From: Sphagnum compactum | Lineage: Eukaryota | DNA: 64,000 bases | Direction of reading: 5' to 3' | Assembly (NCBI GenBank): GCA_965153455.1 | Contig: OZ234493.1 | Location: 28,882,213-28,946,212 of the forward strand | Shown: positions 8,324 to 64,000 of the stretch, in pieces | Numbering within the stretch: the first letter of the stretch is position 1 | How the letters are laid out: each line of letters opens with the position of its first letter | Made by a program: the position numbers and the translations under genes | The notes under the pieces: model-generated | Told to the model about the DNA's origin: nothing | Seen by the model: only the letters and a program-made list of their open reading frames with translations | Database searches by the model: none

Positions 8324-8469
8324 ATCCTCAATCCTCACCTGCCATTCAAGAAGCTGATTGAATGAAGAGTTTCCAGCAAGCAATCACCTTGGTGATGCTG
8401 GCCATGTTTAGGATCTTTGATGCAAGGGCAATTAAGAGAAATTCACATCCTACCACCAGAATAATGAGA

Positions 8470-13724: not shown

Positions 13725-14489
13725 TTAGGATTGCTGCAGAAGTTTCCTCAAGACAGCTTCTGCTCGAAGCTCTACCTTGGGAAGAGCCCAGTCATGTTGG
13801 ATAAGATCCAATCCATCTTTCTCAGCACCCAAGGTTTTGGCAGGATCTGCACCAAAGCCACCCATCTGCATGGCCATCTGTGATTGCATCAACCTTTGAG
13901 CATCATCCGTGGCGTTGTCCTCACCAAGGATGAGACTGAAGAGACCACGAAGACCAAACAGGTTCAAGAAATACCAAGAACGACTACTGACATAGCTCAC
14001 GTCCACGGAGCTCAAGTCGATGCCATTCTGCAGCATGCTACGAAACCTCTGTGTCAAAGGGAAGGGAATCTTGGCAGCAACGAAACCGGAGAAGAAGAAA
14101 TTCACCCAAGCGAAAGTAATGGTCTGAGGAATGATCATGGACAGATTCTTCTTCATCATGTCCATCGCCATGTTAGGGTCCGAGAACATTTGCGCTTGCA
14201 TGTTGGGAGCTTGATCTTTTGGCACATGCAACAATCCATTCTGCTCATTTGTATAATACGTTTTGCGCATCAGGAATGCTTTAGTCGGTATGAGATTGGC
14301 TCCTGCTCTCAAATACCTTGCTCTCAACACCACTTGCCCTTCCTTCAACGCCTTCATATCCGGATTCTGCGTCGTCCGCATCATCCTTGACACAAAATGA
14401 CGCAACACGCCGATGAGTACCATGACCACAGACAAAGGCACTAATACCCAGTCACGGATCTGCGTATCCAGCACCAAATCGTTCGCCAT
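13725..14489 (-). CDS. EMC3: ER membrane protein complex subunit 3, single coding exon, 254 aa
   Basis: MANDLVLDTQIRDWVL...FAWVNFFFSGFVAAKIPFPLTQRFRSMLQNGIDL...VSSRSWYFLNLFGLRG; typical EMC3/TMEM111 motifs in an uninterrupted ORF. Confidence 0.95.
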   Translation of the reverse strand: MANDLVLDTQIRDWVLVPLSVVMVLIGVLRHFVSRMMRTTQNPDMKALKEGQVVLRARYLRAGANLIPTKAFLMRKTYYTNEQNGLLHVPKDQAPNMQAQMFSDPNMAMDMMKKNLSMIIPQTITFAWVNFFFSGFVAAKIPFPLTQRFRSMLQNGIDLSSVDVSYVSSRSWYFLNLFGLRGLFSLILGEDNATDDAQRLMQSQMAMQMGGFGADPAKTLGAEKDGLDLIQHDWALPKVELRAEAVLRKLLQQS

Positions 14490-15039
14490 CTCCTCCTCCT
14501 CCTCTGGAAAAATCCCCACAACAACAAACCCTACAACAAAACACACACAACACAACCTCTTCTCTCTGCAAGCGCACCCTAAGAAAACGAAGAAGACGAC
14601 ATAATCCTCGTGCCTTCATGGATGAATCATCCACGAGCAATTTTCTTCCGGAGAAAAAAAAAGGAAATCATCCATAGTCGCCGACTAGTCGTCCCTGAGG
14701 ACCGATTTATCATCCATGAAGATCACTGGTTCACTTGTGTAATCTTTCGTCCCTGCTGCCACCGAGCATGTCTCGCGCGCGTTCGCGGGTCTCACTTTTT
14801 TCTCTTCTCCTTCGACGCAGATTTTGCCGCAGCGAGCTACTTTCACGCGCACAGTTTTATTTTATTTTATTGTTGCGCTTTATAATTTGGGTGCGCTCAT
14901 TGCATCATCAACTTCCTTTTGGATGCGATCCAATTGGGAGTTTTTGGTTTGTTGTGTATAGTCTAGACATGCTTCTTCTTGTTGTATTGACGGAAGCAGA
15001 TCGAGCTTTGGATTATGGCAGGTGGTGAGTGTCAAGGAT

Positions 15040-19001: not shown

Positions 19002-19619
19002 CTAGCCTGGAGGCCATTTCATTTGGCGACCGCCAAGCAAGTGCAAATGCAGGTGATAGACAGATTGACAGCCATTAGGGCCATCGTTGATGACCACGCG
19101 GAAACCATTATCCAGCCCTTCTTGATCTGCTACGCGTTTGGCCGCCAACAGGAGCTGACCTAACACGTCCTTATGCCTTGCATCGGCCTTGCTGAGCTGC
19201 GTCAAGCCGTCTCTCCGCTTGGGGATGAGAACCACATGGACGGGCGCTTGCGGATTGATGTCACGGAACGCCAACACGGATTCATCCTCGTACACCACGG
19301 AGGCGGGGATCTCCCTGCTCACTATCTTGTCGAATAAGGTAGGCGCCCCTGTGTCTAGCGTGACTGCTGCTGCCGCGGCCGTCTTAGCTGCAGCTTCTTC
19401 GTCTCCACTTCGGGCCTTCACCGCCGTGGTACTACTACTACTCCACAGCCTTTTTGAGCCTATTGCGGTGCCAGCTGCTGCAAGAAGACGTTGCCCACAA
19501 CTAGCTTTTTGCAAGCCTAAAACTGATTTGCAGCTCCGTGCTGCTGCTATTCCGCTGCTGCAGCACGGCACGATACCAGCCGCGTGCGCAGTGAGGCCCA
19601 GCAGCGCCCATCTCGCCAT
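19002..19619 (-). CDS. HINT2: Histidine triad nucleotide-binding protein with N-terminal transit-like extension (HINT2-like), single exon, 205 aa
   Basis: PTLFDKIVSREIPA...AFRDINPQAPVHVVLIPK...GFRVVINDGPNGCQSVYHLHLHLLGGRQMKWPPG; HxHxH triad; Ser/Ala/Arg-rich leader. Confidence 0.92.
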   Translation of the reverse strand: MARWALLGLTAHAAGIVPCCSSGIAAARSCKSVLGLQKASCGQRLLAAAGTAIGSKRLWSSSSTTAVKARSGDEEAAAKTAAAAAVTLDTGAPTLFDKIVSREIPASVVYEDESVLAFRDINPQAPVHVVLIPKRRDGLTQLSKADARHKDVLGQLLLAAKRVADQEGLDNGFRVVINDGPNGCQSVYHLHLHLLGGRQMKWPPG

Positions 19620-21599
19620 GCGTGATGGATGATGATATGTACTTGGGTGGTGGTGGTATGTAGGTATTCTCTCTCTCTCTCTCCTTCTTGCAAAACCCGC
19701 GATCACTACACCAATTGCACAAACTTACACTCATCTAGTAGCTACAAAATTGGATTCCAATTATTGTATACTCATATGCTGCGCATTCGAAACCATCTCC
19801 AACTCGTCAAATGATGAAAGCAGAGCCACGAGAATCGTGAACCAAGGCAGAAGCCGCGAGGACGACGACGACGACCCGAGAGGGTTCGAGCTTGGGAAGC
19901 GTCGCGTATAATACGGTCAGGACGTATGTACTTGTTCATTCAATACAATATATAAAATACGTACAATATATATTCCTGCACACAAACAAAATCAAATTTA
20001 CATACTCAATTTCACTACCAACTAAGAATTGCCAATATTAGTCTTACAAGGAAGATGACATTGGGAGTATAACCTATAATTGTTGTTTCCACTAGAATAG
20101 GTGACCTTACATGATTATTGAAGTTCACAACATGACAATGAAAAAAAATTCAATCATAAACAATCTCACATTTGACTTTTCACCTAAAATTGTAGTATCA
20201 CAAATGAATCAAATGGTCAATATGTAAGTGGAGGGATACTTGACTAGATGGATTGAGGAATCCTTTTCACAAGGATGGGGATTGATTTTTTTTTGTCACA
20301 TTTTATTAGCAATAATTTGGGCTTTTCACAACCAAAATAATTTGTTATACAATTTCATTGTTTGAACTCAAAGTCCAACATTATGGCCAACATGTTATGA
20401 ACATGAACAATTGTAGAAGTATTTAAAAGGTTAAAAAAAAAAGGCTAGCATATTGGTCGCTTTTGGACTCATGCAACCATGGAGGATCTTGAGCTCATCA
20501 TCAAATTGCAATGTAAAAAAAAAGCATACACATAGCTCAATGCTTGAAGTTAGCTCTAAGTTTCATGGATTTAGTAATAATAACATTCAAGGCATCAAAC
20601 AAGAACCCATAGCCTTTTTATTTAATTTAAAACACATTCTTCCACAATTTTTCTTCAAATATCCACCCCGTCCCATGTAATGGCCCAAGTCAACTCAATG
20701 AGACATTCATAAATCAAACATGACACTAGTTGGCACAAGTATAAAGGAAAGTTAACACAAATTTGTCCATGGACTTGTACATCATGGCCTATGAATATGT
20801 TAACTACTTACAACTTGGAAACTTGATATTGAACTTGTCCCTATCCAAACAAGAGATTGAAGCCATGGTAATCAAATGCTAAAAATGGCTCCACATGTCT
20901 GGGCTATATAAAAAAATCAAATCTTCTATAAATTCAAAATCATCCATGCAATTATGAACATAAGATTCATATTCACAAGACTACCTTATTTCATCAACTA
21001 CATCCACGCATCAAGATTGTGATCATGATGACAATTGGAACAATGTTGAAATAGGTGATTGACACCAACCACTATAGGCACAAAAAAATGGACACGTCTT
21101 ATTAAACAAACAATAATTTCATTCACATTATACACATCATCATTTATTCATGTTATCACATATGTTTTCAACAAACTATCAAACCAAAATGAATGCATAG
21201 AAATGATCGGACGACTACCTTAATAACATTTGTTGTTGTTGCATTCACCAAACATAACTATTGAAATGATTCGCACTTCCTTTCCTCGTTGCAATAGTCA
21301 CAACATCTACATTCAACCATTTAAAACTTAACCATGTTATGCTTGTGCAAGCAATATTTTGGACTTCAATGGATTGCTATGAAACTCTACAAGCTATAGG
21401 TCATAACAAGCATCCTTTCCATGGCAACAAGTACAAGAGTAACAAGCATAAAGGTCTAAACCTACCAATTCGAAAGGTTTTCGAATATCAATATTTTCAT
21501 AGGTTGGCACTGGTAGATTATGTTGTTTCTTATTTGTTTAAACTATTTAAAAACCTAACAATTTATTTAAAACACGCCTAAGCAATTAGTTCAAACCTT

Positions 21600-34000: not shown

Positions 34001-37000
34001 TAATTTCCTTGCCAAAAGGTTGAAAGAAATTTTTTTACACAAAATATTTCATTTTGATTCAAACATCAATATTTATAAAACTTAGTTTCCACCACCATTT
34101 GGAATTACTATATTATTTATAAGTTAAAGCATAAGTGAACAAACAAGTCAATGAGTTCCATTAACTTAATGTTTTGCAAATGCAGGGAATTTTAGTACCA
34201 TATGCCTCAACTATTCAATTATCAAACAACAACCATTACAAAATTGAGGATGCTAATCACTTGACAATTTGCAAGCCACCAAACAAAGATCATCCAAATT
34301 ATTCTTTATTGTTAAAATGTTTGAAAATATGTATGGAGGTAAAAACTTCAAATCTGAATCTTTTGATTTCATATATGTTCATGTAATTTGATACACATTA
34401 GGTCATAGCACACTTGATGTGTATCGCATACGCAATGTCAGATATATTTGTTATCAAATAAAAAAGATAACATATAAATGACCTATATTTTGTGAATTTT
34501 GACAGAAAAATATATTGCTTCCACGTTTGCCATATCATGAGGTGGCGTTGATTGGCAAAGCAAAAGACATAAACATCTTGTTACAAAAGGAATATATTAT
34601 TGGTTTGGTTGGAATGGGTGGGATTGGGAAAACCACTTTGTGCAAAAAATTCTATCATTTGTTCCACAACCAATATGACAAATCTAGTTTTTTAGAGGAT
34701 GTGAAATCAAAAGACAATATTAACGATGTCATAAAACAACTCCTACATGATTTGTGTGGGATATGCAAGGATAAAACTGTGAATCAAGATGACCTTGACC
34801 GAATTAGGCAATGTATGATATCGGAAAAAGTGTTAATGGTGGTGGATGACGTTGGTAAAGCAGAGAACCTTACATCCTTGCAACTTCTCATTGATACCAA
34901 GAATGCAACTCCTAAAAGCAAAGTACTTGTGAATTGTCGAAATTGGCAAATTTTGAAATCTCATGTAAGTGAAGATGGAAAAGTGGTCATGAAATCTTTG
35001 GAAGAAAAACAAGCAAGGGAACTATTTATGTTCCATGCATTCGGTAATGCAAATCATGTTCCAACAAAGGATTTCAAAGATATATGTATGAAGATTATAA
35101 AAGCTTGTGGGGGGCTCCCTTTAAGCCTTAAAGTATTGGGTTCTTTTTTGTGTAATATTAAAGAGTTAGAAATTTGGGAAGGTGCATTAAGCAAATTGGA
35201 AAGTGGGCAAAGCTTCACTGGGGGCAATGATAATGAAGAACTTTGGAGTAAATTGAAGATTTCTTATGACCATTTGGATAAGGAACATCAAAACATGTTT
35301 TTGGATATTGCTTGTTTTTTGGGTGGTTTGAAAATAAGTACAATTTGTCGAGTGTGGAGTGGAGATTATTTATACCCAAGGTTTGCATTACAAAATTTGC
35401 AACATAGATCTTTAATCCAATGGGTAGAAGGTGGAATCTTGTACATACATGAACAATTACGAGACATGGGACAATATATTGCAAGGGAACCTCCAATTAT
35501 GAATCGATTTATATGGAAATCAAATATGTCAAAAAAAAATTTACAAAAGGATGAGGTTGTCACCATACTATTTCAATCCTATAATTTTATTATGATATCC
35601 TATGATTTCTTTTGATGTCCAAAACCAAATGCTTTAAATTTGAATCTTGATTTTATAAATACAGGCTTTTTTAATAAATTTGGCACTAGGATGAAATGTT
35701 TTTTTGTATTGATAATCCTTTTGTTTTCATTTCATGTGATAGGTGATGGAAAATTTAGAAGGCATCTCATTGAAAAAATGTGTCAAGTTGCCTACATTGT
35801 CCCAAATTAGTTCAAAGGGATTTCGCAACCTTAGGTTGCTTGACCTAACAGAAGCTTCACCAACTATCGTGGAAAATTGCATCCAAGGGAGAAATTTGAA
35901 TAATGTTAAATGGTTGTGCCTCAAGAACTGCATGATTCAAAAATTGCCAAATAATTTGTTTAATTGTTTCCAAATACAAGTACTTGATTTGGCACAATGC
36001 CAAAGTTTGGAAGAAATACCTTCATCTATTGGCCAATTAAATGCACTCCAAGAGCTTGATTTGTCGTGGTGTAAAAAATTGCAAAAATTGCCCCCATCTA
36101 TTGGCGAATTGAATGCACTCGCACAACTTGATTTGTCACAGTGTTCCAACTTGAAAGAACTACCTTCATCTATTGGCCAATTGAACGCACTCCAAAAGCT
36201 TCAATTGTCGCAATGTTCCAACTTGAAAGAACTACCTTCATCTATTGGCCAATTGAACGCACTCCACACGCTTGATTTGTCACGGTGTTCCAACTTGAAA
36301 GAACTACCTTCATCTATTGGCCAATTGAACGCACTCCAAAAGCTTCAATTGTCGTAATGTTCCAACTTGAAAGAACTACCTTCATCTATTGGCCAATTGA
36401 ACGCACTCCACACGCTTGATTTGTCACGGTGTTCCAACTTGAAAGAACTACCTTCATCTATTGGCCAATTGAACGCACTCCAAAAGCTTCAATTGTCGTA
36501 ATGTTCCAACTTGAAAAAACTACCTTCATCTATTGGCCAATTGAACGCACTCCAAAAGCTTCTTTTGTCGAACTGTTCCAACTTGAAAATACTACCTTCA
36601 TCTATTGGCCAATTGAACGCACTCCAAGAGCTTAATTTGCGGGGGTGTTTCTACTTGAAAGAATTACCTTTATCTATTGGCGAATTAAACGCACTACAAC
36701 AACTTGTTTTGTCAAAGTGTTCTAACTTGAAAGAACTACCTTCATATATTGGCCAATTGAACGCACTCCAAGAGCTTTATTTGTCAAGGTGTTCCGACTT
36801 GAAAAAACTACCTTCATCTATTGGCCAATTGAACACACTCCGAAACCTTAATTTGAAGGGGTGTTTCCACTTGAAAAAATTACCTTCATCTATTGGCCAA
36901 TTGAATGCACTCCAAATTCTTAAATTGTTAGGGTGTTCAAACTTGAAAAAACTACCTTCATCTATTAGCCAATTGAACACACTCCAACAGCTTCATTTAT

Positions 37001-40000
37001 GGGGGTGTTCCAACTTGAAAGAACTACCTTCATATATTGGCCAATTGAACACACTCCACACGCTTGATTTGTCAGAGTGTTCCAATTTGAAAGAACTACC
37101 TTCATCTATTAGCCAATTGAACGCACTCCACACGCTTGATTTGTCACGGTGTTCCAACTTGAAAGAACTACCTTCATCTATTGGCCAATTGACAACACTC
37201 CAAGAGCTTGACTTGTTAGAATGTTCAAACTTGAAAGAACTATCTTCATCTATCGGCCAATTAAACGCACTCCAAGAGCTTAATTTGCGGGGGTGTTCCA
37301 ACTTGAAAAAACTACCTTCATCTATTGGCCAATTGAATGCACTTCAAAAGCTTGATTTGTCATGGTGTTCCAACTTGAAAGAACTACCTTCATCTATTGG
37401 CCAATTGAACACACTCCAAGAGCTTCATTTATGGGGGTGTTCCAACTTGAAAGAACTACCTTCATCTATTGGCCAATTGAACGCACTCTCAGAGCTTGAT
37501 TTGTCATGGTGTTCCGACTTGAAAGAACTACCTTCATCTATTGGCCAATTGAATGCACTCTCACAGCTTGATTTGTCATGGTGTTCTAACTTGAAAGAAC
37601 TACCTTCATCTATTGGCCAATCAAATGCACACCCACAACTTGATTTGTCAAGGTGTTCCAGCTTGAAAGAACTACCTTCATCTATTGGCCAATTGAATGC
37701 ACTCTCACAGCTTAATTTGTCATGGTGTTCTAACTTGAAAGAACTACCTTCATCTATTGGCCAATTGAACGCACTCCAAAAGCTTCAATTGTCGCAATGT
37801 TCCAACTTGAAAGAACTACCTTCATCTATTGGCCAATTGAACGCACTCCACACGCTTGATTTGTCACGATGTTCCAACTTGAAAGAACTACCTTCATCTA
37901 TTGGCCAATTGAATGCACTGTCACAGCTTGATTTGTCCAGGTGTCCCCTATTGAAAAAACTACCTTCATCTATTGGGCAATTGAACATAATCCAAAAGCT
38001 TAATTTGTCATGGTGTTCCGACTTGAAAGAAATACCTTCATCTATTGGCCAATTGAACCCACTCCACACGCTTGATTTGTCACGGTGTTCCAACTTGAAA
38101 GAACTACCTTCATCTATTGGTCAATTGAACGCACTCCACACGTTTGATTTGTCACGGTGTTCCAACTTGAAAGAAGTACCTTCATCTATTGGCCAATTGA
38201 ACGCACTCCACACGCTTGATTTGTCACGGTGTTCCAACTTGAAAGAAGTACCTTTATCTATTGGCCAATTGAACGCACTCCACACGCTTGATTTGTCACG
38301 GTGTTCCAACTTGAAAGAACTGCCTTCATCTATTGGCCAATTGAACGCACTCCAAAAGCTTCAATTGTCGCAATGTTCCAACTTGAAAGAACTAACTTCA
38401 TCTATTGGCCAATTGAACGCACTCCAACAGCTTAATTTGTGGGGGTGTTCCTACTTGAAAGAACTACCTTCATCTATTGACCAATTGAATGCACTTTCAC
38501 AGCTTCTTTTGTCAGAGTGTTCTAACTTGAAAGAACTACCTTCATCTATTGGCCAATTGAACGCACTCCACACGCTTGATTTGTCACGGTGTTCCAATTT
38601 GAAAGAACTACCTTCATCTATTGGCCAATTGAACACACTCCGAAAGCTTAATTTGTGGGGGTGTTTCTACTTGAAAGAATTACCTTCATCTATTGGCCAA
38701 TTGAATGCACTTCAAATTCTTAATTTGTTAGAGTGTTCAAACTTGAAAGAACTACCTTCATCTATTAGCCAATTGAACACATTCCAACAGCTTCATTTAT
38801 GGGGTGTTTCAACTTGAAAGAACTACCTTCATCTATTGGCCAATTGAACGCACTCCACACGCTTGATTTGTCAGGGTGTTCCAATTTGAAAGAACTACCT
38901 TCATCTATTGGCCAATTGAACGCACTCCAAGAGCTTAATTTGCGGGGGTGTTTCTACTTGAAAGAATTACCTTTATCTATTGGTCAATTAAACGCACTAC
39001 AACAACTTGTTTTGTCAAGGTGTTCTAACTTGAAAGAACTACCTTCATCTATTGGCCAATTGAATGCACTTCAAGAGGTTGATTTGTTAGGGTGTTCCAA
39101 CTTGAAAGAACTACCTTCATGTATTGGCCAATTGAATGCACTCCAAGACCTTGATTTGTGAAAATGTTCGAGCTTGAAGGAAGTATCTTCATTTATTGGC
39201 TAATTGAACGCACTTTAAAAGCTTCATTTGTGGGAGTGTTAGAACTTGAAAGAACTACCTTTATTTACTAACCAATTGAATGGAATCCAAGAGCTTGATT
39301 TGTCAGGGCGTTCGAACTTGAAAGAACTACCTTCATCTATTGGCAATTGAATGCACTTCAAACGTTTGATTTGTCAAGGTATTCCACTTGAAAAAACTAC
39401 CTTCATCTATTGGCCAATTGAATGCACTCTAAGACCTTGATTTGTAAAAATGTTCAAACTTGAAGGAAGTATCTTCATTTATTGGCCAATTGAATGCACT
39501 CCAAGAGCTTGTTTTATCAGGGTGTTTGAACTTGAAAGAATTAGTTTTATCTATTGGTCAATTGAATGCACTCCAAAAGTTTGATTTGTTAAGGTGTACC
39601 AACTTGAAAGAAGTACCTTCATGTATTAGCTAATTGGATGCAATCCAAAAGCTTGATTTGTTAGGGTGTTACTATTTGAAATAATTACATTTATGTATTG
39701 GCCAATTGAATGCACTCCAAAAGTTTTATTTGTACGAGTGTCGCAACTTGAGAGAACTGCTTTCATCTATTAGCGAATTGAAATCACTGCAAATCTTTAT
39801 TTATAAGATTTTTGCCACTTGAAAACATCATGAAATAAGTACATTCATCTAGGGGCGAATTGAATGCACTCAAAGTGCTTCATTTGTCAAGGTGATTTAA
39901 CTTGAAATAACTACTTTCATTTATTTACTAGTTGAATACATTCCAAGAAAGCTTCATTTGTTAGGGTGTTCCAACTTGAAAAAACTACTTTCATTTGTTA

Positions 40001-51500: not shown

Positions 51501-54500
51501 AGTCAATAGGTAATCTATAAAACCTGTATTTGATAGAACCGATAGTTGGATAGGTAATTAAATAGGGTGTACTTTTTTTGAAATTTTTGGACTATTAATG
51601 TAGGTACTGGCTAATGACTATTTATAATGGTCAGTTACGACTGTTGTATTTTGAAATGGCTAGTATAATACTAGGAGGACAAACATGTTGAAGGGACTTT
51701 TTGGATTTCATTCATGATTATGTGTTTTACTCTTCAATTATGGAACATGGATCATTTTTCTTTCAACCTATTTCCTTCAAGCTTTAGCAATTTGTGTAGA
51801 CGTTAATTTAGGATTTGTAATCGTCTAAGTTTTATTTTGTGTATTGTATGTACTTGTTGTTTTAGGAACCCATTGTTGAAAAAAATCCAGAGGTAAAATA
51901 ATCTTAATGGGAATAAAAAAACCTCATTAACACCCATTTGTAGCTTACACCATGTTATCCAAATCCCTTGCCACTAAGGACATCCTTGGTTGATGACTTT
52001 TTTAGCTATCATTAGCCACCTTGCTGTGGGATGCCATTGTCCTTTGTAGTTCTATTTCAATTGATCCACCCTATGGAAAATGAAGATTTTCCATGGTTTT
52101 GGTCTTGGATTATGACCTCAAATCAACATTTTTGCAAGAAGTGCAAATGTTTGAGCCTTTGGACCTAATATTTTAATCCCACCTTTAGTCAATGGTATAT
52201 GGTTGTATCCCATGTTACCTTGGTTCTAGCTTTACTATTTGCTTTGCTTGATTAAACAAAGTTATGTTATGCTCGTATGCATGGCCTCATACATGACGAC
52301 CGATTACAGGCATGCCAATCATGCCTTTTAAGGTTAATGTACGTTCTTAGGTTACTGTATGTTATTAGGTGTTTTAGGGTTATGGCTTGTTTAGGGTTTC
52401 AGCTTGTTGACGGCTGTATAAAAGGCCAAGCTCTTCCCTTCTCTTGCTAGTTTCCTCCATAGTCAGACTGAATTTCTAAATGCTCACGGCGACTATTACA
52501 CGGCCACCATTTACATACACTACATTTTTTTTCCTTCTTTTCAATTTAGTTCTAGAAAAACTGCTTTCTGTCACTTAATGTTGAAAGCGGTAGATTTTTC
52601 CTTGGGCTTCTTTTGCTTGCTGGTTTCTTGTGTTCTTGAGTTGTTGTTACTTCTTTTTCTGCAATAGAATCCAGTTCTATCGGTTCTAGAAGAGAAAGCC
52701 ACATGTGCAGTAAGCCCTTAGGTACCACTACCCAAAATCCTCACCTGGGCAAGAACCACCATTGCTTCGAGATCAAAAGAGAAGCTGAGGAGGCGCTGGA
52801 GAAGCGATGAACGTGCGTGTGTGTGCTGTAGCACAAGAAAAGAAGACAACACTTTCTTAATGGGGGACTAATCTGTAGCGACAAATCAGGTCCTTCTCCT
52901 CCTCCTGCAATTGCAACTGCTTGCTGCTAGGTGAGTAAGCTTAGGAATTTGTTGAAGCCGGATTCTCGCATTGTTACTTGCGAGAGAGTTTGATTCGCTG
53001 TTGCTGCCATAGCCACGACGACGACCAGGATGTTTCGATGGATGCAATGTTGAGGTCGCTATGTGGGATCGCTTCTTCGTAAAGAATTTTTTTTTCATCA
53101 ATCTGCTCTTCTTACTCACACCTGTTGTGGAACATCATGATCATGATCTTCTTCTAGCAGATGCCTTCCTTCTTCAAGTTACTTTGTGGTTGCTGCGATC
53201 CCTCCTGTCCGGCGTGGTGGTCCGGACTCGAAAAGCTCTCGTGGGTGTGGGTTGTTGTTGGTAGAGAACTTTAGATCTAGAGTGGGTGGCTAGGGTGAAT
53301 TGTTTGTCGACTCCTCAGCTCCTCACTATTAAACTAGATGTTGTTCGCTCGCTCCAAGGAAGCTGCCAACTTTCCCTGTTTTTCCTTGGTAAATTCGTTG
53401 TTGCTCTTATTTTGTTCTCCTCCAGCTTGTTTATGGCAGTAGCAGCTGGTGACGACGTTATGTTGGAGGAGGCGGAGGAAGCCTTGAAGACTCTTGAAGA
53501 TTGCAGGGCTAAGTGCAGCATGAAGCAATAAGAAGAAAAAAAAATTTGCACACCATTGCTGCAAAGCTCTCAGGCGATCTATAGCGCGATGTCCGTCATG
53601 TTGTCGCTCACCATCGCTGTAGAACTTTCGGGCGATCTGTAGCACCACGTCGCCACCCGCCATCGCTGCAAAACTCCCGGGCAATCGATAACGCCGCATT
53701 CGTAGCGTCGTTAATCGCATTGCCGTCGCCAACTTTCGTCCACGGACTTTCATTTAGAGACTTTCATCCATTGACGTCCGTCCATCGACATCTATCCACA
53801 GACTTCCGTCCATTGACGTCTATCCATAGACGTCCGTCCATCGATGTCCGTTCGTCACCGTTCATCCCCATTGACGCACCGTATTCTTCAAATCATATAA
53901 ATTGCATACATACGTATCCGATACCGTATTCTTCAAACCATATCTAGTGCTATGTATTTCTACAAAATTTTGAGGCATGGGACAACACCATGTCCTCGGG
54001 TGATGAGAGCATTACCGCTCAGCTAGAGCTAAGGTATCAGCTAAGAAGCAACATGTGAGCCATGGATTATGATTCAATAAATTGTTAAGCTTTAGTTCCA
54101 TAGCTTTCCTTAGTAATAATGATTTGAATCCTTGTAAACCTCCAAGTAATAATTATTAATAGTTGAATTAGCCTTTGGATATTTCCAAGCGTAGAGAACT
54201 TTTTATTTAAGATGATGTAACGCTTAGTTAATTTTAGGACCTAATAAACTTTTTAAAGTGCATTATCCTTTTAGGTTGTAGAGGGTGAAAATGGATGTAG
54301 AATTAGATGTGATTTTACTGATATATTGGGAATACAAGCCCATAATTAACATTAACATTTCGCCATGATAATATTAAATTAGTCTGTAGAATAATCTTCA
54401 AGCACTAATGATGTACTTGTAAAATTTCTAGGATGCAGTCCTAATACATCCTTATATAGTTCTCACTTCTATCAGACTCTTAAATAGAATCAAAATCAAA

Positions 54501-57500
54501 CTTAAGTATTAACATTTTCACCTGAGTAGCCTCACGTGAATTACAACTTAGTAAACGATTAAAAGGGGATAGATCATAATTGTAAAAAATCCAGAATGCG
54601 AAGAATGGTGCGAGCTAGGTATTTGGCTCGATGCTCCATGGAAAGGGGGTTGATTGGGCCTCGTAGCCAACGATAATGGCCATCACCGGTAACTCAAGTT
54701 CGACAATGAAGACGAAAATCGTTGTCTTCACATTAACACTCTTCAAACCTTTCTGGCACAGTTTCATAAGCAAGAACAAATTCTAAATAGATTGCTGAGG
54801 CATGTGGGTTAGGAGACAATTCACGATCCCATGCCGAACGATCGACTCGAATGCACATCACTCATCTGGATGGTTCTTCTTCGCGCAACTGTTGAGAGAC
54901 ATTCACGTCAAGTGGTGCTACGTCAAGCGGTGCTTCGTCAAGCGGTGCTTCGTCAAGCGGTTCTTCTTCAAGCTCTTCCTTTTCTACCGATGCAATTGGA
55001 GGATTCGAGGGCGTAGCAACATCATCCGCCATGATTAATTTTCAGCTACATCAACAAAAATCAAAGGGTAGCCGAAACAATTTGGCGCTTGCATTCGAAG
55101 GGGGTCGTTGCCTTTATTCAAGAAATTAAGGTAGGCATAAGGTGTGGCAATGATGGTGGAACTTCGTGAAAATTCGAACATTTTAGTTTCAACGAATTTG
55201 TGAAACCCTAATATCGACAGTGGATCTAGAAGTACATGGGAATCCTTGTAATTCCAAATTTAATTCTAATTTACTATGTACTACATAATTATTTAGTACA
55301 CGGTAAGGAATAACTAGGGTATATTAAAAAAATAAATGGTGCATGGAAAGGTTATTACTACCGTTGAGTTGATTTAATCAAATGGCAACTCAAGGATGGT
55401 TACTTATTACTACCGGTAAATTATCCCAATAGTTAGTTACTTAGATTAGTTAGGATGAAGAAGTAGAATGTTAACTCAAACGGACAAAATTGACAATGAT
55501 TGAACTCAAGAACCCCATCAAGATGTCCAAGGTAAGGAAAAGGATGAGTCCTCCAATTCCATTGGTCATGAGGATTATCATCCTATTTAATTGGAGAATA
55601 GAACCTTCTTAGTGTTTCATTGGGCATAAGGATTCTCATCATAAATTTCATAGGAAAGAAAAATCATTTTCAATTCTCATTGGTTCATGAAGGATGAGGA
55701 GGCCATTGATTGGAGGGAAGGATTTCCAAACTTCCATTGGACAAGGAGAATAAGCTCAAGGAGGGGTCATGGGAGGCTTACCAAGAGGAGTGGTATCTTG
55801 TGTGTTTTTCGGGGGAAAAAATGAGGAGAATGAGTGTGTGAGAGAAGAATTAATTCTTATGTGTGAGAACATGTTGTTCATAAACAAAAAATGTGCAAAC
55901 AAAGAGCATGGAAGGAAGTTGTGTGTAGCAAGTAATTGTAGTGGGGTTCATGGAAGGATTTCCATGAACAAGCCTTTGGATTCTTATTTAAAATAGTTGT
56001 TCCTCTCAAATTCACCGTTGGATTTGTCTCAAACTTTAAACAATTTTAATTTAAGAGGTGTAAAAGGTTCTCCCAAAATTTTAGCATCATCGGGTTTACT
56101 GCACAAAAGCTACACTTGCTGGAAGTAGAGGGGGTTGAAACTGTCTATTTTTTTCCTCAAATCTGGTCAAATTAGTTTTTTGTTTCGAAGCATAACTCTT
56201 GATTTCAAAAATAAAAACTTATAATATTTTGTAACATTGCTCTTTTCAAGATTAACTTTTTAAAAACCCAATGCATGTTAAACTAGGAGGTTGTATGAAG
56301 ATATTATGACAAATGGAACGAAGGGGAGTCAACCATCAAGCGTGAACATGGCTTTAACATCAACATAATGTTCCTTCACATTCCATCATGGTGAGTTTTG
56401 ATTCTCCCACAATGTTTTGGTATCTTCCAAGTGGACATAACGCATTAGATTATTAGTGAACTTCATTACATTACATTGAACCATTTTAACTTGTTAGAAT
56501 ACAATTACATAGTAGTTCCACCCCCTAGTGAGTTTTGTGAGTGCATATCTTCATGTGGAAGGTGTGCAAGAATTCCTCACATAACACAATCATTTGAACC
56601 AATTTTTTTGAGCTCACGATCTTCACAGTGATACCATCAAACGTCTATAGTGCCATCGTCATCCAATACAACTCTTACTAGGAATTTAGGTTCAGGTTAC
56701 ACTACATCAACAGTACATCAGAGTCCATTTGGAGGGGTTAATTAGTGGGGTACACCAGCTGCCGCACCAACTTTCACACCATCACCATATATTCCGTTGC
56801 AAGCCGTTACTTCTACACCCATATACACCATGGAGGTTAGTAGTTCCTCTGGGAGAATGGAGAAGTTTAGCGGAAGGCCAGGTACCATTTCTTTGAGGGA
56901 GTTTAAGACAACTTTCTCAATTGTAATTTGTGAATTGGAGCTCAAGTATGGGGCTAATTACACCGAGGCGTTCGAATTTAAACAACTAGCCCGTATGTGC
57001 ACTATGAGGCATTAGATGTCTACGAGTAACATTCTCCAAGGATTTTGGGCGTCACCTAGATCCCCAATCTAACTTATGCCACAGCTATCGTCATCGCCTC
57101 TCAAGCTACATTGCAAGCGGCCATTGCACATCATGGGACTGTGCCCAATAATCTAAATCCGGTATTTACTTTTGTAAACTTTTCTCCTCAACAACTCATT
57201 GATGTTACCGCAAACATTCCTCCCACCATTGATGCACCAGCTTTTGCTGAATTAGTGGGGGAATTCTTTCAAGTTCTTGAATTAGAATTTCCGGTTAAGA
57301 GTTTTGAAAAAATTCTGCAACTTGCCACCTTCTTTTGGCAGAAGGATGAAAGCCTCAAGATGTTCTACAGGAGGCTTCTCAAGCTTAAAGAAGATACTAA
57401 GAGCATCACAAACTTGGAAGCTACCCATCGATATCTTCGTTTGTTGGAAGGTATTCCGACACTCCATGCGCAGGTTTTGCAACGAGTTTTTATAGAATTT

Positions 57501-59689
57501 GGAGACTCGTACATTTTGCTGGATGTGTACAACATTTCTGAAAAAGTTGGAATTGGCTCATGCACACTATGAGACGAGTACTATGAGGCCTCCATCACGT
57601 TCAAGGCCTCAACCTCCACCAGCTGTGCTAACTAATCATCACATTCTTCTTCAAGGGTTAAATAGTGCATTTGGCTGCACCCATCCTACCTTCTTACAAC
57701 TACTATGGCAATCCTGCCCACAAAGCTAGTGAATGTAACATTCTTTTGAGGACCTCTTTTGTGATTATTGTGGGAAAGAAGGACATCAAAAAATTGTTTG
57801 TTTTGCCAAGTTCTCGGAATGGAAGCAACTTCAATTACCACGGCAAAATCTACCAACATCTTCTACTGCCCCTCAACCAAAAGCCAAGGCACCTCAGCCT
57901 TCCACTTAGGCTTTCCCCACTAAGGGTAATTCCAGTAAGAATGTTAAGAAGAAAAAACACAATGCTGACAAGAAGGAGGTGCTTCAAGCCCATGCCGTTT
58001 AAGTTCAAACTCTGCAAAATGAACTTGAATCATTGAGGGCCGATCTTGCTAATTTAAAAGGCAAGTCTTCCCAACCAGCTAATCATGCCCAACCTTTAAA
58101 GGGTTCAGGATCACGGGAGGGACCTCCTAGGTCGTTCTATGGCCTCTCACACAATGCCATGGTTGGGGAGTATGTTCTTTCTAGTGCACACAATTCTAGT
58201 CTCACATCAGAATTTGCCACTTCTTTTTGCCCTTCCTACTTCATGGCACAAGAGGCTAGTGTGGCACCCAACGTTTCTGCCATTAGGCAGGTAATTCAGA
58301 TTGATGAACTTGCATCTGGTTCAAGTCCTATTACTAGGGCTAGAGGAGCTCAAGGAGCTCGAGGAGTCATGCCACAATCTTTTCATCCTTTCAACATGGA
58401 AGAAGAACGCACCTTGTTGGCAAGGGGGGAGGAGACTATTCACCACAAGCTTCTAGGGCATCAAATTTTCATGTCCCAAAAGTACATGTACATTAGGAAA
58501 ACACACAATTTTCCACTAATCAACTTATGGAATGCCAACTTCAAATGCGTGAAGTGGTGCAAAAGCTTGTGAGTACACCGTTGTTTAGTTTTCAAGATTT
58601 GAAGCTAAGCACCAGGGACATAATTGCAGTAATAAAGGATACCCTGAACACTACATCAGGTCCTCTACCAATCCCCGATCCACATGTTACAGGGGTCCCA
58701 TCCAACACTTTGGAGAGACATTCGATTAGCTCACATGTTGCAGATGGCGTTCGTAATCTAGTCATTAGTTCTAGCATGGCTAAACTAGTGGGCTCTCCTA
58801 CCTTTGATTCTACATTCACATATCAAAAGGGAACTAAGAACACCTCATTTGTGAATTTGTTACTCAACAAAGGCGTTGTGGATAGCTATTCTCTTCACAA
58901 AGTCTCTCACTCATTTTCGAAGGTGGTGCCTAGTGAGAGAACTTCCATCGCCATTGGAGTTACCATTGTCAACAATATTGAATTAGCAATCCAGGTGGGA
59001 AGACATACACCCAGAGTGGTACTTCTTGATACAAGTGTTCAACCATTGATTCTTGGAGTTCAATTTGCCAAGAAGATGGGCATGCTCGACTCCAAACTAC
59101 GGGAATCTATGTGGCAAATTCGCACTACTAATGGGAGCGTAGAGGATGTACTTGGGGAGAGCTCGGATTTGATTGCATTTAACTTCAATGAAGGTACAGA
59201 TCAAGAGCTTTGCCTACAGGTCAGATGTTTAGTCACCAATGCCACCAGTTACGATGTGCTCATTGGGCAAGAGGCCCTGTTTCCACCAAATTCCACAATT
59301 GACAACTGGTTCGAGCATGCGTACTACCGAATGGATTGGGAGACTGATGGCCACCACCTGGGATACATACCCTTGATTTACATGGGAATCATAGTCCTAT
59401 GGCTCACCATTGTATGCTCAAGGAAGCACACACCATTTCTTACATCCAACAAGCTAACCGTGAGTGGATAGAGGGAGATGAAGAGGAGACAGCTTACGCC
59501 CAAGCTACTGAAAGCTTAAAGGTGGTTCCTATGGACATTCAACACGAACTAGAGGTTTTACAGAGGTTCAAAGCAGCCCATGAGCCCTTGGTCAAAGCTC
59601 TGTCTAGTTTTGAGAACATGGAGAGCCATGGCGAACCAATTAAGCCAGTACTTTGTCAGCTAATCACCTGGACATTGCCTAAGGAGGGG

Positions 59690-60625
59690 ATTACATTATT
59701 AGAGCTTTTTGGTGGTATAGGTCTTGAAGCCCTACTATGGTCAGGGATGGTGGTTCAAAGATATTTCTACGTAGACATTGATCCTATTGCAAGGCAAGTG
59801 GCGGCATCGAGAATGATGGAGCTCACAGCCAAGTTTCCACAATAACTTGCAAACACCGCATGGAAGGTTAGTTTCATTTTCTTGCCCTCTGACATACAAC
59901 TAATTCAGAAGAAACATATGGAATTATTTAGCCCTGTGGACCTCATCATTTTAGGTTGGGAGTGTCAAGGATTTTCAACGGCTAGATTTGGAGAAGGCTT
60001 AAGTGACACAAGATCTGGTCTTTTCACGGACATGGTACGGTTGATCACCTGGGCTCAATCCATTTCTCCTACACTTGGTTATGTAATTGAGAACACCCCA
60101 TTTCAGCTTGACAAGAGGGAAAAAGTCCAAGAACATTACACGCTAGTCAAACATTACCTTGGAGAACCGCTCCTACTCGATGCGGCACAATGCGGTTCCT
60201 ATGCACACTGATTGCACAAATGGTGGACCAACCTTGCACCACTCTTAGTTCTGCAATTAGTTTTGAGATACACCATCAGAGACCCCAACCTATAGGTTTC
60301 TCACATATTGGATGATCAAAGCTCCTGCCAACCAGTTATAAGACAAGAGAAACCTCCTTGGTTTTTTGGGAACACAATAGGAAAACCAAGAGGTGCTTAG
60401 CCCACCTTTGTCTCCTTCCCAGGAGCACACACGTTTCAGGGAGATGGACTAGGCCTGGTGTATTGTCATGCTTCAACCACTTGGGATGAACCAAGCCCAG
60501 AAGAAAGAGAAAAGGCTATGGGGTTCCAAATTGGCACTACTAGTCACACCAAGGTGATTAGATTAGAGTGTAACGCTCTATTGGGGAGAGGCATGGACCT
60601 GAACTCCCTTACATGATTGTTGGTA
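59690..60625 (+). pseudogene. DNMT3-like C5 cytosine DNA methyltransferase domain inside retrotransposon Pol
   Basis: Motif I LLELFGGIG; II YVDID; III SDI; IV DLIILGWECQGFS (Cys codon 59963-59965); V RSGLF; VI VIENT; VIII LDAAQCGSYAH*LHKWWTNL; IX PEEREKAMGF; X LLGRGMDLNSL. Confidence 0.9.
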
Positions 60626-63600
60626 ACCTGTGTATTCTTTCAAATGTACACAACACTAGCATTGATTCAATTAGCTTGCAGTTCTGGCGATGCGACTACA
60701 TGGCACCCCGACCAAGTACACTTGCCTATCTTCAACACTCTACACTTCACTTTCAATGTTGGGGAGGAGGAGGTACCATGTAATTTGACTCAAGTTGTTT
60801 CTGATACACCTAAATAAACAATTATAACCTTCTACGAATCTGCGCAGTTGGATAGTGGAGAACCCAATACACCAGGTTCTTCAAACACACTTTCTAACTC
60901 CATTCCATGTGTTTCCAACTACCCTTTCGTTATGGGGAACTAGCTCACCAAGAAGGAGAGAGACCAGGTCACAGACTTGTTAATTAAGCATGAAAATGTG
61001 TTCGCATTCTCAATGAAAGACTTAGGTAGGTGTAAGACCATGCAATTTTCTATAGACCTTACAGATGAGACACCCATCTATCGGAGGAGGCATAGGTTGA
61101 GTAAACATGAATGGGAACTGGTAGATGAAAGATGCAAAAAGTTCCATGAGGCTGGTCTCATTTAGCCATCAAGTTCTGATTTCGCAGTCGCTATAGTAAT
61201 GCCATCAAAAAAGGATTCAGCTGGATTATGGACTGAGAAAAGGATGTGCGAGGATTATAAGCCTTTGAACCTGGTTACACCTCAAGACAGGTACCCCATG
61301 CCCATCCCTAAAGAATTGATTGATATTATTGGAGATTTAAACATCTTCACAATTGTGGATCTGAGGCAAAACTTCAACTACATTGTGCTCGTTGCGAAGG
61401 ATCGTAAGAAAACGACATTCCATGGAAGCAACAAGTTGTGGGAATGGCTTGTGATGCCTTTTGGATTGAAGTATGCACCTGTCTTCTTTTAGCGAGTCAT
61501 GGACTAGGTTCTCGAAGGGGCATATTTCCTGAAATGCTACATAAATGACATCCTAGTGCATAGCAAGGGACTCCTGCAGCACTTGGCTCATCTTGAGGAG
61601 TTATTCAAGAGGCTCCATGAAGTCAATATGAAGATCCATCCTAAAAAGTGTGAGTTTGTTGTCACCTCAATAGTCTACTTTGGGCATAGAATTTTGCCAA
61701 ATGGTATTATGGCTCATTGGGCCAAAGTAGTAGCCATTTTGGAGATGCCCAATCCTATTGATGTTCACACTTTGAGGAGTTTCATCAGACTATGTAATTA
61801 TTACAAGATTTGTGTCCAAGACTTAAGTACTATCGCTCATCCTCTCTATGCATTATTAAAGAAGGATGTTGCTTGGACACGGAGTGAAGAGGCTCAGGAA
61901 GCTTTCAACACACTCAAGGAAAAGATTTCAGAGTTCCCCATTTTAAGAAGACCTGATTTTAGCAAGGTTTTCATTCTACACACTAATTGGAGTGCTCTTG
62001 GTATTGGTGCTATTCTTCGCCAACTTGATGAGGAAGGCAAGGAATATGTTATCGCCTATGCATTCCGAAGCAACAACAAGGCTGAGAGCAACTACTTTTC
62101 ATACGAGGGGGACTGTCTTGTTGTTGTATGGGCCATCATACATTTCAGGCCCTATCTTTATGGCACCAAATTCACTTTGTATATCGACCACCAGCCTATC
62201 AAATGGTTGATGACCAACGACAAGCTTATTGGCAAGTTAGCTCGTTGGGCGCTTATACTTTAGGAGTAAGAGTTCAAGGTTATTCACCGACCTAGTATTA
62301 CACATCAGAACGTAGATACCATGTCGCAAAGACCCCTCACTACCTCTGAAGATTTCTCAAAAGCCAAGCAAGATTTCGACTAGATTCCAGCAGTACATGT
62401 ATCTTATGCATCTAGTTATCTTGCACTACTGCAATGTGACTTGGTTGAACATCCCATTGTGGATATATGGGAGGACTTGGACACTCTGAGGTTTTTTCAG
62501 CATGGGGAATACCCTCCCCAAGTTACATTAAGTCATCGGGATTGCATATAATAGTGGTCCAAATGCTACTCATGGAGGGACAATCACCTCGTCCGATGCT
62601 TACCACAAGGTGATAGAGTGGTTCCTCCACCACATGAACGGCTTGGTCTTATTCAGAAGGTACACTCGGAGCTTGGACACTTTGGAGTTAAACGTACTTA
62701 TAGCCTTTTCGTTCCTCATTACCATTGGAGAGGTATGTATGTTCAAGTTCGAAACGTCATTGCTAGGTGTGAACAATGTGATAGGGTGAGATCTTCCTTC
62801 TCCTTTTGACAGCTCACGCTTTCTCCACTCCCTATTCAGGGCATGTTCTATTGCTGGTCATGTGATTTAGCTGGAGAGTTACCACAGACCTCCAAGGGTA
62901 ATGTCTACATCATGATTATGATTGAACATTTTTCAAAGTGGGTCGAGCTTGTTGCGCTACCGGACAAATCCTCACACAGCACCAGCCAAACTTTTTTACA
63001 ACAAGTCCTAATTAAGTAGGTTTGGGGCTTGTGCTGAGTGCTTTACTGATCAAGGATCAAAATTCAAAGGAGAATTCCAAGACCTACTTGATCATGCTCT
63101 CATTGACCATTGCCGGACTTCAAGGGATCATCCCCAAGCTGATGGCCTTGCAGAGAGGATGGTTCAGACATGCAAGAAAGGACTTCGAAAAATTTGCCTC
63201 ATTGGGAACAAAGAGGATTGGGACTTGGCCCTACCTTACATCGCCATAGGTTACAGGATGACCAAGCACGCCTCTTTGTCTCATTTATCTCCTTACTTTC
63301 TACTTTTTGGGAGACATCCCATTCCACCCTCTTCCATTGCTGCTCAAATGGACCAGGTTTGTGGACTTGGACTCCCCAGCCACTTGGGCTAGGGTCATCG
63401 CAGAGAGGGCTGCTATATTCAGGAGGGTTATGCCCATGGCCATGGAGAACTTGTCCATTGCACAACATTGAGACACCTTACGGTATGCATACACACATGA
63501 GGTGGTAATTATAAACTTAAAGTGAGACAAGTTGATGTTGGTGACTTTGTGTATCTTTAATGGCAACCTAATGATACTTTATACACTTCTTCCGGTCGCA

Positions 63601-63764
63601 CTATCTTGAGGATTAAGGCGATCGAGCCTTCAGGTGTGTTGGAGTTGCAAGGAGCTGATAGACGCACAATTCGGGATCACTCCAAAAATTGTGCGCCCTG
63701 CCACCTACCGAACTTAGATCCTACCATCATCACATCGACTTGGATTCCTCCACTTGACTATCCA

Positions 63765-63899
63765 TGTCAAGTATGTCAAAGGACAGATGATGCTGATCAG
63801 ATGCTGCTTTGTGATAATTGTAATGGTGGATACCATTTATTCTGCCTCAAGCCGGAGCTCAGTCAAGTTCCCGTCAGCATTTGGTATTGTTCATCATAA
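63765..63899 (+). other. PHD finger at the C-terminus of the retrotransposon integrase
   Basis: CQVC...MLLCDNC...YHLFCLKPELSQVP..IWYCSS*: C4HC3 pattern with the last Cys position replaced by a stop. Confidence 0.92.
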
Positions 63900-64000
63900 T
63901 CTCCTGTAGCATTTTGATTTTTACTTAGACCATGCCACGCTTTTTTCGGCTTTGGTATGGGGGGGGATACATGAGAATTTCATCTTAGCCTCCTTTTGTG

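Follow-up and report, generated by a model that had tools for sequence, protein, structure and literature searches.

Here, we show that a PHD finger of the moss Sphagnum compactum sits behind the integrase of a Ty3/gypsy-type mobile element that also encodes a DNMT3-like cytosine-5 methyltransferase in its Pol. The element lies in a stretch of 64,000 nucleotides, referred to here as the window, and its domains are arranged in the order gag-PR-DNMT3-like-RT-RH-INT-PHD. Judged from its protein relatives, the finger has long been a conserved addition to the integrase in a green-lineage clade and is not a local accident, and the element is a real, only partly new kind of chromatin-aware mobile element. 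We propose, at a probability of roughly 60%, that the finger would tether the integration complex to the unmodified (K4me0) tail of histone H3, while the DNMT3-like domain would methylate the new cDNA or insertion.

Results

The element is encoded on the plus strand and begins with a terminal repeat, A1, of ~300-335 bp (52264..52600), which matches both A repeats of the sister loci L024, L048, L065 and L076 at 70-78%. The untranslated leader from A1 to gag (52725..54053) is collinear with positions 2611-4068 of L076 (72-84%). It is followed by a nested 2.5 kb repeat (54054..56583, no strand assigned) that is outside the family structure, the sisters being without an insert at this place. This repeat ends in TGTGAG...CTCACA and is found in reverse orientation in L047, L055 and L056. 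The gag region (56746..58500) is broken into several frames, of which the parts 56746-57015 and 57060-57572 are collinear with sister loci; no Pfam family was found in the gag pieces of the window.

Downstream of gag, also on the plus strand, an aspartic protease (59001..59280) is recognized as a weak PF13975 match (E 0.0035) at residues 169-261 of the frame 58497-59471, and this region is collinear in the sisters. The DNMT3-like cytosine-5 methyltransferase (59681..60616; PF00145, E 9.6e-9) is spread over three frames with a stop at 59843-59845, and retains the motifs FGGIG, ECQGFS, ENTP and EPSPEEREKAMGF. Reverse transcriptase (60944..61693) is matched by PF00078 in the frames 61166-61492 and 61508-62263, and RNase H (61886..62263) by PF17917 (E 9.1e-31) and PF17919 (E 1.2e-28). 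The integrase consists of an H2C2 zinc-binding domain (62624..62794; PF17921, E 1.1e-15), a catalytic core (62810..63392) that aligns to the rve domain of the related proteins P0002 and P0012 and is interrupted by a stop at 62807-62809 and a frameshift near 63010, and a C-terminal part (63393..63764) made of a helix, an SH3-like module (GDFVYL ... NCAPCHLP) and a linker, which is open throughout in the sisters. The PHD finger of the C4HC3 type (63765..63899) comes next, and the Pol stop of the family, a TGA at 63915..63917, is five codons past the eighth zinc ligand. Pfam identifies PR, RT, RH and an integrase with H2C2 and DDE domains, in this order, which is the one expected of Ty3/gypsy elements, in the window as well as in P0012, P0230 and P0284.

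The 3' end is marked by a run of eight G (63959..63966) that resembles a polypurine tract, a role that we infer; a G run also precedes repeat B1 in L024. B1 starts at 63967 and is cut by the edge of the window (63967..64000), its 34 bases matching B1 and B2 of L024 and L048 at 91%. The window therefore contains only A1 and the beginning of B1. In the family, the repeats are organized as A1 ... B1-A2-B2, that is, as split direct repeats with A of ~300 bp and B of ~180 bp, in place of the two identical long terminal repeats of Ty3/gypsy elements. The A repeat is found 1.2-1.5 kb before gag and again ~230 bp past the Pol stop (pair seen in 10 of 22 loci), and B1 fills the 180 bp from the stop to A2, with B2 directly after A2 (pair seen in 8 of 12 loci); in L024, the four repeats are at 2417-2709, 11115-11294, 11296-11588 and 11589-11768. 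In the 22 loci compared for the A repeat, no B repeat came to light ahead of A1. Split direct repeats of this kind are known from PAT/Ngaro-type DIRS elements, and here they accompany a Gypsy-type Pol with a DDE integrase. Self-BLAST of the window, and a search with its last 20-40 bases, found no 5' LTR, because the repeats are split and the 3' A repeat is beyond the window end; self-BLAST also found no second copy of the element in the 64,000 nucleotides.

The window also contains host genes. A resistance-type gene with NB-ARC and LRR domains is carried by three frames on the plus strand (34503-38817), and three further genes on the minus strand (7826-8383, 13725-14615 and 19002-19724) are listed as a WRC-domain frame, EMC3/TMCO1 and a HIT-family protein. 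These plant genes identify the host as a land plant. The element is located ~13 kb downstream of the NLR gene, past an AT-rich stretch (29-32% GC at 40-52 kb), and this copy shows no obvious preference for heterochromatin, a point against the targeting proposed here.

That the window encodes a PHD finger, as the first-pass annotation had proposed, was confirmed by a PF00628 match on the plus strand with an E-value of 4.5e-12 and 46.2 bits against a cut-off of 24. The match covers residues 69-111 of a 112-residue frame (63561-63899) and positions 1-45 of the 47 in the model. The annotation had given the range 63606-63899; the finger proper is at 63765-63896, while the first 160 bases (63606-63764) belong to the SH3-like end of the integrase and the linker, the first 68 residues of the frame being integrase with its SH3-like module and the motif NCAPCHLP. 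The finger follows this module directly, and it does occupy the place of the chromodomain in chromoviruses. Of its eight zinc ligands, the window copy retains seven (C63765, C63774, C, C, H, C63843 and C63888), spaced as Cys-x2-Cys, 11 residues, Cys-x2-Cys, 4 residues, His-x2-Cys, 14 residues and Cys-Ser-Ser followed by TAA. This TAA (63897-63899) is at the position of the eighth ligand, where TGT is found in the 35 sister copies that could be aligned through the codon.

The finger is in one frame with the C-terminal module of the integrase (GDFVYL, 63540-63557), from which it is separated by an in-frame TAA (63558-63560). Between the integrase core and the finger, the window copy has frameshifts near 63358 and 63500 and two stops, TGA at 63469-63471 and the TAA just mentioned. 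In this copy, the finger is linked to the integrase by homology with the sisters only and not by an open frame. With its frameshifts and stops in Pol, the window copy is a dead, methylation-scarred relic.

To see how intact relatives are built, we compared the 112-residue frame with longer proteins. Among the 102 matches obtained, those of named origin belong to Sphagnum magellanicum (up to 92% identity) and the liverwort Calypogeia fissa (78%). The sister proteins end in ...WYCSSCSPTAP followed by a stop, so that the eighth Cys is present and Pol terminates five residues on. Sister loci were collected by scanning metagenome contigs with P0002, which confirmed 589 of 600 candidate stretches and left 80 loci. 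A PHD stretch could be extracted from 74 of these loci and is in frame with the integrase in 73. Ligand 8 is Cys in 69 of the 73, a point that the first-pass annotation had proposed to check on a family consensus. The annotation had also named two results that would speak against the fusion, namely intact copies that end Pol before the finger and sisters that are devoid of it. Neither was seen: the stop is five codons past ligand 8 in 72 of the 73 in-frame copies, which are on different contigs, and in-frame fingers are present in 73 of the 80 loci.

Open reading frames spanning the junction were found among the protein relatives. P0012 is a single ORF of 929 residues with RT-RH-INT-PHD, and P0230 (1471 residues), which shares its 90% cluster, is a single ORF with DNMT-RT-RH-INT-PHD. 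P0284 (2811 residues) and P0294 (2358 residues) represent complete gag-pol frames, in which the DNMT precedes RT and the PHD finger forms the extreme C-terminus. In P0230, Pol is open and His5 and Cys6 of the finger are changed to Tyr. These changes are at CHG deamination hot spots and look like decay; given P0230, the element may also be able to propagate without a working finger.

Most sister copies are decayed. All eight ligands are intact in 23 of the 73 and at least one is changed in the other 50; only seven combine eight ligands with a PHD stretch free of stops. Among the differences between sister copies, 857 of 1223 are C>T or G>A, and Cys-to-Tyr losses of ligands occur only at codons preceded by C, that is, at CTG (CHG) sites. 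In sister proteins, the residues at the positions of the window stops 63469 and 63558 are Arg and Gln. The decay looks like deamination of CHG-methylated cytosines, to which the loss of ligands in most copies would be due; such loss does not imply that the finger is dispensable. Short contigs from RNA libraries that are at least 88% alike covered all of the 30 bins in three runs and 29 of them in another, the PHD region included. We rejected these as a sign of transcription of the family, since they are contigs of sister copies and carry-over of DNA is possible.

As the first search had been made with a query containing the finger, its bias was checked with a query of integrase only (P0012 residues 500-800). 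Among the 120 integrase relatives listed, 100 contain a PHD finger (PF00628), and the 20 without are mostly frames that end inside the integrase, frameshifted fingers or outgroups of at most 33% identity. The named hosts in this list are Klebsormidium nitens, Calypogeia, Marchantia polymorpha, Riccia, Closterium, Haematococcus, Pleodorina, Chromochloris and Sphagnum. Vascular plants are represented in this list by a single match, from Citrus, which has 30% identity and is without a PHD finger. A strict C4HC3 pattern is found in 88 of the 120, and in about eleven the eighth Cys is replaced by His (W-x-C-x2-H); this His-ending subgroup contains P0162, P0164-P0167, P0170, P0175, P0176, P0178 and P0193. 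PF00628 scores are 43-47 bits in P0012, P0084 and P0122. The family as a whole has the C4HC3 set of ligands, of which the window copy keeps seven.

Across 25 aligned proteins with 42-94% identity to P0001, seven ligands and the Asp after ligand 3 (Asp263) are invariant, and ligand 8 is retained in at least 90%. The invariance of the ligands extends to relatives only 42-58% identical. For the 45 PHD codons, the pooled pairwise dN/dS among the 73 decayed copies is 0.30, a rough value, as the pairs are non-independent and hypermutable sites may inflate dS. In the ESM Atlas, PHD fingers are present in 99% of the members of the best cluster (0.93; Streptophyta), which adds nothing beyond Pfam.

Many algal relatives, including P0086, P0089, P0146, P0150 and P0202, continue for 100-530 residues beyond the finger, with a conserved block of roughly GxVVxxxxxxxxWGVxxFxGxxxxPxYFxVxYxDG for which Pfam has no family; in bryophyte-type copies, the protein ends five residues past the finger. 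One protein, P0258, in the 226-member RT-RH-INT-PHD cluster of P0084, is filed publicly under an uncultured cyanobacterium and is probably from a eukaryotic contig binned with a bacterial genome.

To find out which type of finger this is, we compared it with solved structures. The nearest PDB sequence matches are WSTF at the top, PHD1 of Lid/KDM5, KMT2D, CHD4, ATXR5, BAZ2A/B and KDM5A/B, together with KAT6A, UHRF1, AIRE and PHF21A; no entry of a DNMT3 ADD domain is among the best 60 of 86 matches. Most of the nearest solved fingers have the unmodified N-terminus of H3 as target, and we know of no established histone mark for the PHD finger of WSTF. The AlphaFold2 model of the sister protein P0001 is modest overall (mean pLDDT 67.6, pTM 0.36) and better defined in the finger (pLDDT 83-89) and in the SH3-like strands 174-225 (~80). 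The best domain-sized match in Foldseek is the PHD finger of ATXR5 in complex with H3 (5vab_A; 52% identity, rmsd 1.0, TMt 0.79), and BAZ2A fingers bound to unmodified H3 (4q6f, 5t8r) match at ~40% identity and rmsd 1.1-1.3. These superpositions cover 45-47 columns, and further domain-sized matches are fingers of DPF3, MOZ and BAZ2B. The P0001 model has the cross-braced two-zinc fold (pLDDT 83-89; rmsd 1.0-1.3), with zinc binding predicted. When the whole 296-residue model was submitted, Tudor-PHD proteins took the top ranks with long, poor superpositions (rmsd 11-21), and these were set aside.

Readers of H3K4me3 have a cage Trp two residues before the ligand His. PHD readers of unmodified H3K4 lack an aromatic cage and contact K4 and R2 through acidic residues; methylation of K4 abolishes their binding. 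In the finger of our family, every bryophyte-type copy has Gly two residues ahead of the ligand His, and MLLCD is preceded by an acidic DDAD patch. By sequence and by model, the closest resemblance of the finger is to readers of the unmodified H3 tail (ATXR5 and BAZ2A). The Gly and the DDAD patch point to reading of K4me0, as a resemblance of class only, since the PDB relatives are mixed with WSTF at the top. ATXR5 (5vab) and BAZ2A (4q6f, 5t8r), which according to the PDB titles were solved with unmodified H3, are chromatin proteins of the host, whereas ours is the finger of a transposon; the likeness is one of structure and is not a claim of descent.

The Pol pieces of the window match the sister loci collinearly, and the DNMT piece is at the expected distance in 42 of the 47 loci whose sequence reaches 4.3 kb or more upstream from the finger; the remaining five have a truncated 5' part or an internal deletion. 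Together with the single ORFs of P0230, P0284 and P0294, this bears out the suggestion of the first-pass annotation that the element encodes its own methyltransferase domain, and places a DNMT3-like domain inside a Gypsy Pol, as in Gypsy-DNMT3 elements. With residues 1-365 of P0230 as query, the top PDB matches are DNMT3A/3C/3B (E 9e-8), and the match spans motifs I, IV, VI and VIII and a C-terminal ERER-MGF stretch. Motif IV is ECQ, not PCQ/PCN, in the DNMT of the window family, a change that may affect catalysis.

Two placements of the DNMT in Pol were observed, both with ECQ. It is before RT, on the side of PR, in the window family, in P0107, P0129, P0136, P0230 and P0284 and in Marchantia, and between RNase H and integrase in P0089, P0092, P0138, P0139, P0179, P0188 and others. 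A search with the DNMT only gave 21 matches, of which all named ones are from Marchantia; 8 of the 21 extend beyond the integrase, and 6 of these have a full PHD finger. The region L066:4540-8012, on the upstream side of a truncated sister copy, holds a second, much more distant element with DNMT, RT, RH and INT pieces that are 30-55% identical and in the same order.

Discussion

The family is best placed among the Gypsy-DNMT3 elements already known, of which the published Klebsormidium element is compared here by its description. KnitGypsy-Dnmt3 has a DNMT3 in Pol and DIRS-like repeats (de Mendoza et al. 2018, PMC5890265). The descriptions agree in a Gypsy-type Pol with an intron-less DNMT3-like domain, in the terminal repeats, where the A1 ... 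B1-A2-B2 arrangement of our family is that of the legend of Fig. 4c, and in marks of CHG/CHH methylation in the copies (PMC5890265). The isolated DNMT domain of KnitGypsy-Dnmt3 gave no de novo methylation in yeast, a result that the authors considered inconclusive (PMC5890265). The hosts differ: a charophyte alga there, a moss here, with relatives in the liverworts Marchantia, Calypogeia and Riccia. The word PHD does not occur in the main text of that paper, and its Fig. 4c or Supplementary Fig. 13 may show one. Klebsormidium nitens does have an INT-PHD protein, P0103, that is 57% identical to the P0012 integrase query; it is represented among the integrase relatives listed only by P0103 and P0213, and by none of the 21 matches of the DNMT-only search.

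Accessory PHD fingers are common in the transposons of Chlamydomonas (Craig et al. 2021, PMC8557442). One of them, Gypsy-7a_cRei, has a Gypsy Gag-Pol with a PHD finger, and targeted insertion was suggested for it, intergenic insertions being 2.6-fold above chance expectation (Craig et al. 2022, PMC9940879). By the figure legend, no DNMT is in its domain list, and the PHD is named before INT, so that its position may differ from the C-terminal one of our family (PMC9940879). The chlorophyte integrase relatives from Haematococcus, Pleodorina and Chromochloris have a C-terminal finger, as in the window family.

Chromoviruses likewise have a small reader of histone tails behind the C-terminal module of the integrase, presumed to steer insertion by chromatin state (PMC6317226, PMC3350952). 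They carry a chromodomain, associated with H3K9me, and plain LTRs, whereas our family has a PHD finger, which by its sequence likely reads unmodified H3K4, and split direct repeats. No chromodomain was found in the Pfam scans of the window frames or of 19 relatives. Filing with the Chlamyvir elements was rejected, as these have a chromodomain according to the papers, in whose text PHD does not occur (Neumann et al. 2019, PMC6317226; Novikova et al. 2012, PMC3350952). A recent preprint describes EpiLTRs of Cymbomonas and Euglena, which combine a chromodomain and DAM with a DNMT sister to DNMT4, and names 'streptophytes (Gypsy-DNMT3)' (bioRxiv 10.64898/2026.05.21.726589). As far as that text describes them, EpiLTRs share with our family the union of chromatin reader and DNA methyltransferase domains in one LTR unit, and the idea of a self-contained epigenetic toolkit; they differ in that our family pairs a PHD finger with a DNMT3-like domain, in streptophytes. 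In the literature texts, figures and supplements aside, we found no description of PHD and DNMT together in a Gypsy element, or of this family in bryophytes. New for Gypsy-DNMT3 elements are the moss and liverwort hosts, the integrase-PHD end, so far undiscussed, and the relocated DNMT.

What could be the role of the finger? The chromodomain of chromoviruses biases insertion towards H3K9-methylated chromatin. By analogy of position, we argue that the finger would bind the N-terminal tail of H3 with unmodified K4 and tether the integration complex to nucleosomes. Such tethering would bias insertion away from active promoters marked by H3K4me3, and the DNMT3-like domain of the same polyprotein would then methylate the new cDNA or insertion. 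The domains themselves, their order, the in-frame fusion, its conservation, the co-occurrence with the DNMT and the decay of the window copy are observed; histone binding and its specificity, the effect on integration, the activity of the DNMT and the cooperation of both domains are what we infer from them. The reading of the first-pass annotation is supported in part; the coupling of reader and writer that it proposes is reasonable and goes beyond this evidence.

The first-pass annotation had also drawn a parallel to DNMT3, which is guided by its ADD domain, and this leads to another explanation, that the finger serves the DNMT as ADD serves DNMT3, directing methylation to H3K4me0 or switching it on there, with its place behind the integrase being incidental. 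The methyltransferase is indeed DNMT3-like. In many algal relatives (P0089, P0138, P0139, P0179 and P0188) the DNMT is directly before INT-PHD, and DNMT-INT-PHD could be one mature protein; DNMT and PHD also co-occur in both reciprocal searches. In the window family and its closest relatives, however, RT, RH and INT separate the two domains, and the finger resembles canonical PHD fingers (ATXR5, BAZ2A, WSTF and KDM5) and not ADD, which is missing from the best 60 of 86 PDB matches. A finger without a DNMT in the domain list, as described for Gypsy-7a_cRei (PMC9940879), speaks in the same direction, and we regard this explanation as unlikely. Equally unlikely, in our view, is that the finger reads H3K4me3, acetyl-lysine or a host protein and brings insertions towards open chromatin or a tethering factor. 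Ty1, Ty3 and Tf1 do use host factors for insertion, PDB titles give H3K14 acyl marks as ligands of the related DPF fingers of KAT6A/MOZ and DPF3 and H3R2 as the residue read by UHRF1, and the window copy is in a gene-bearing region. Against this, Gly and not Trp stands two positions ahead of the ligand His in all bryophyte-type copies, the structures that match best at domain size were solved with unmodified H3, and the finger is single, not a tandem DPF.

It is hardly conceivable that the finger has no role in the element and is carried along as a passenger, derived from a captured host exon or from a neighbouring gene fragment. One might think so from the window copy, in which the eighth ligand is absent, and from the 50 of 73 sister copies with at least one ligand changed, but the Cys ligands are lost to Tyr only at CTG (CHG) sites, a pattern of decay. 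A passenger would also not be expected to have an identical junction and stop codon in 72 of 73 copies on different contigs, ligands that are invariant across relatives only 42-58% identical, a finger in 100 of the 120 integrase relatives listed, from chlorophytes to bryophytes, and a dN/dS of 0.30 over the PHD codons, rough as this value is.

A wider evolutionary picture, which we find doubtful but worth stating, would be that of a Gypsy clade older than land plants and still present in mosses and liverworts, in which a finger for H3K4me0 on the integrase picks silent chromatin and the DNMT marks the copy as host-like heterochromatin. The logic of animal DNMT3 would then be split over the two ends of Pol; the PHD finger would belong to the older core for targeting, its INT-PHD end remaining in place, and the methylase, moved at least once, would be a movable add-on.

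If the tethering proposed here is right and the finger steers integration, it would be a second, independent case of histone-tail reading by LTR-type elements, beside the chromodomain of chromoviruses; the finger would read the absence of an active mark, where the chromodomain reads the presence of a silent one. With copies in Sphagnum, Marchantia and Calypogeia, the family puts an element-encoded DNMT3 in land plants. As Marchantia is a tractable laboratory plant with chromatin maps, the idea of targeting is testable there.
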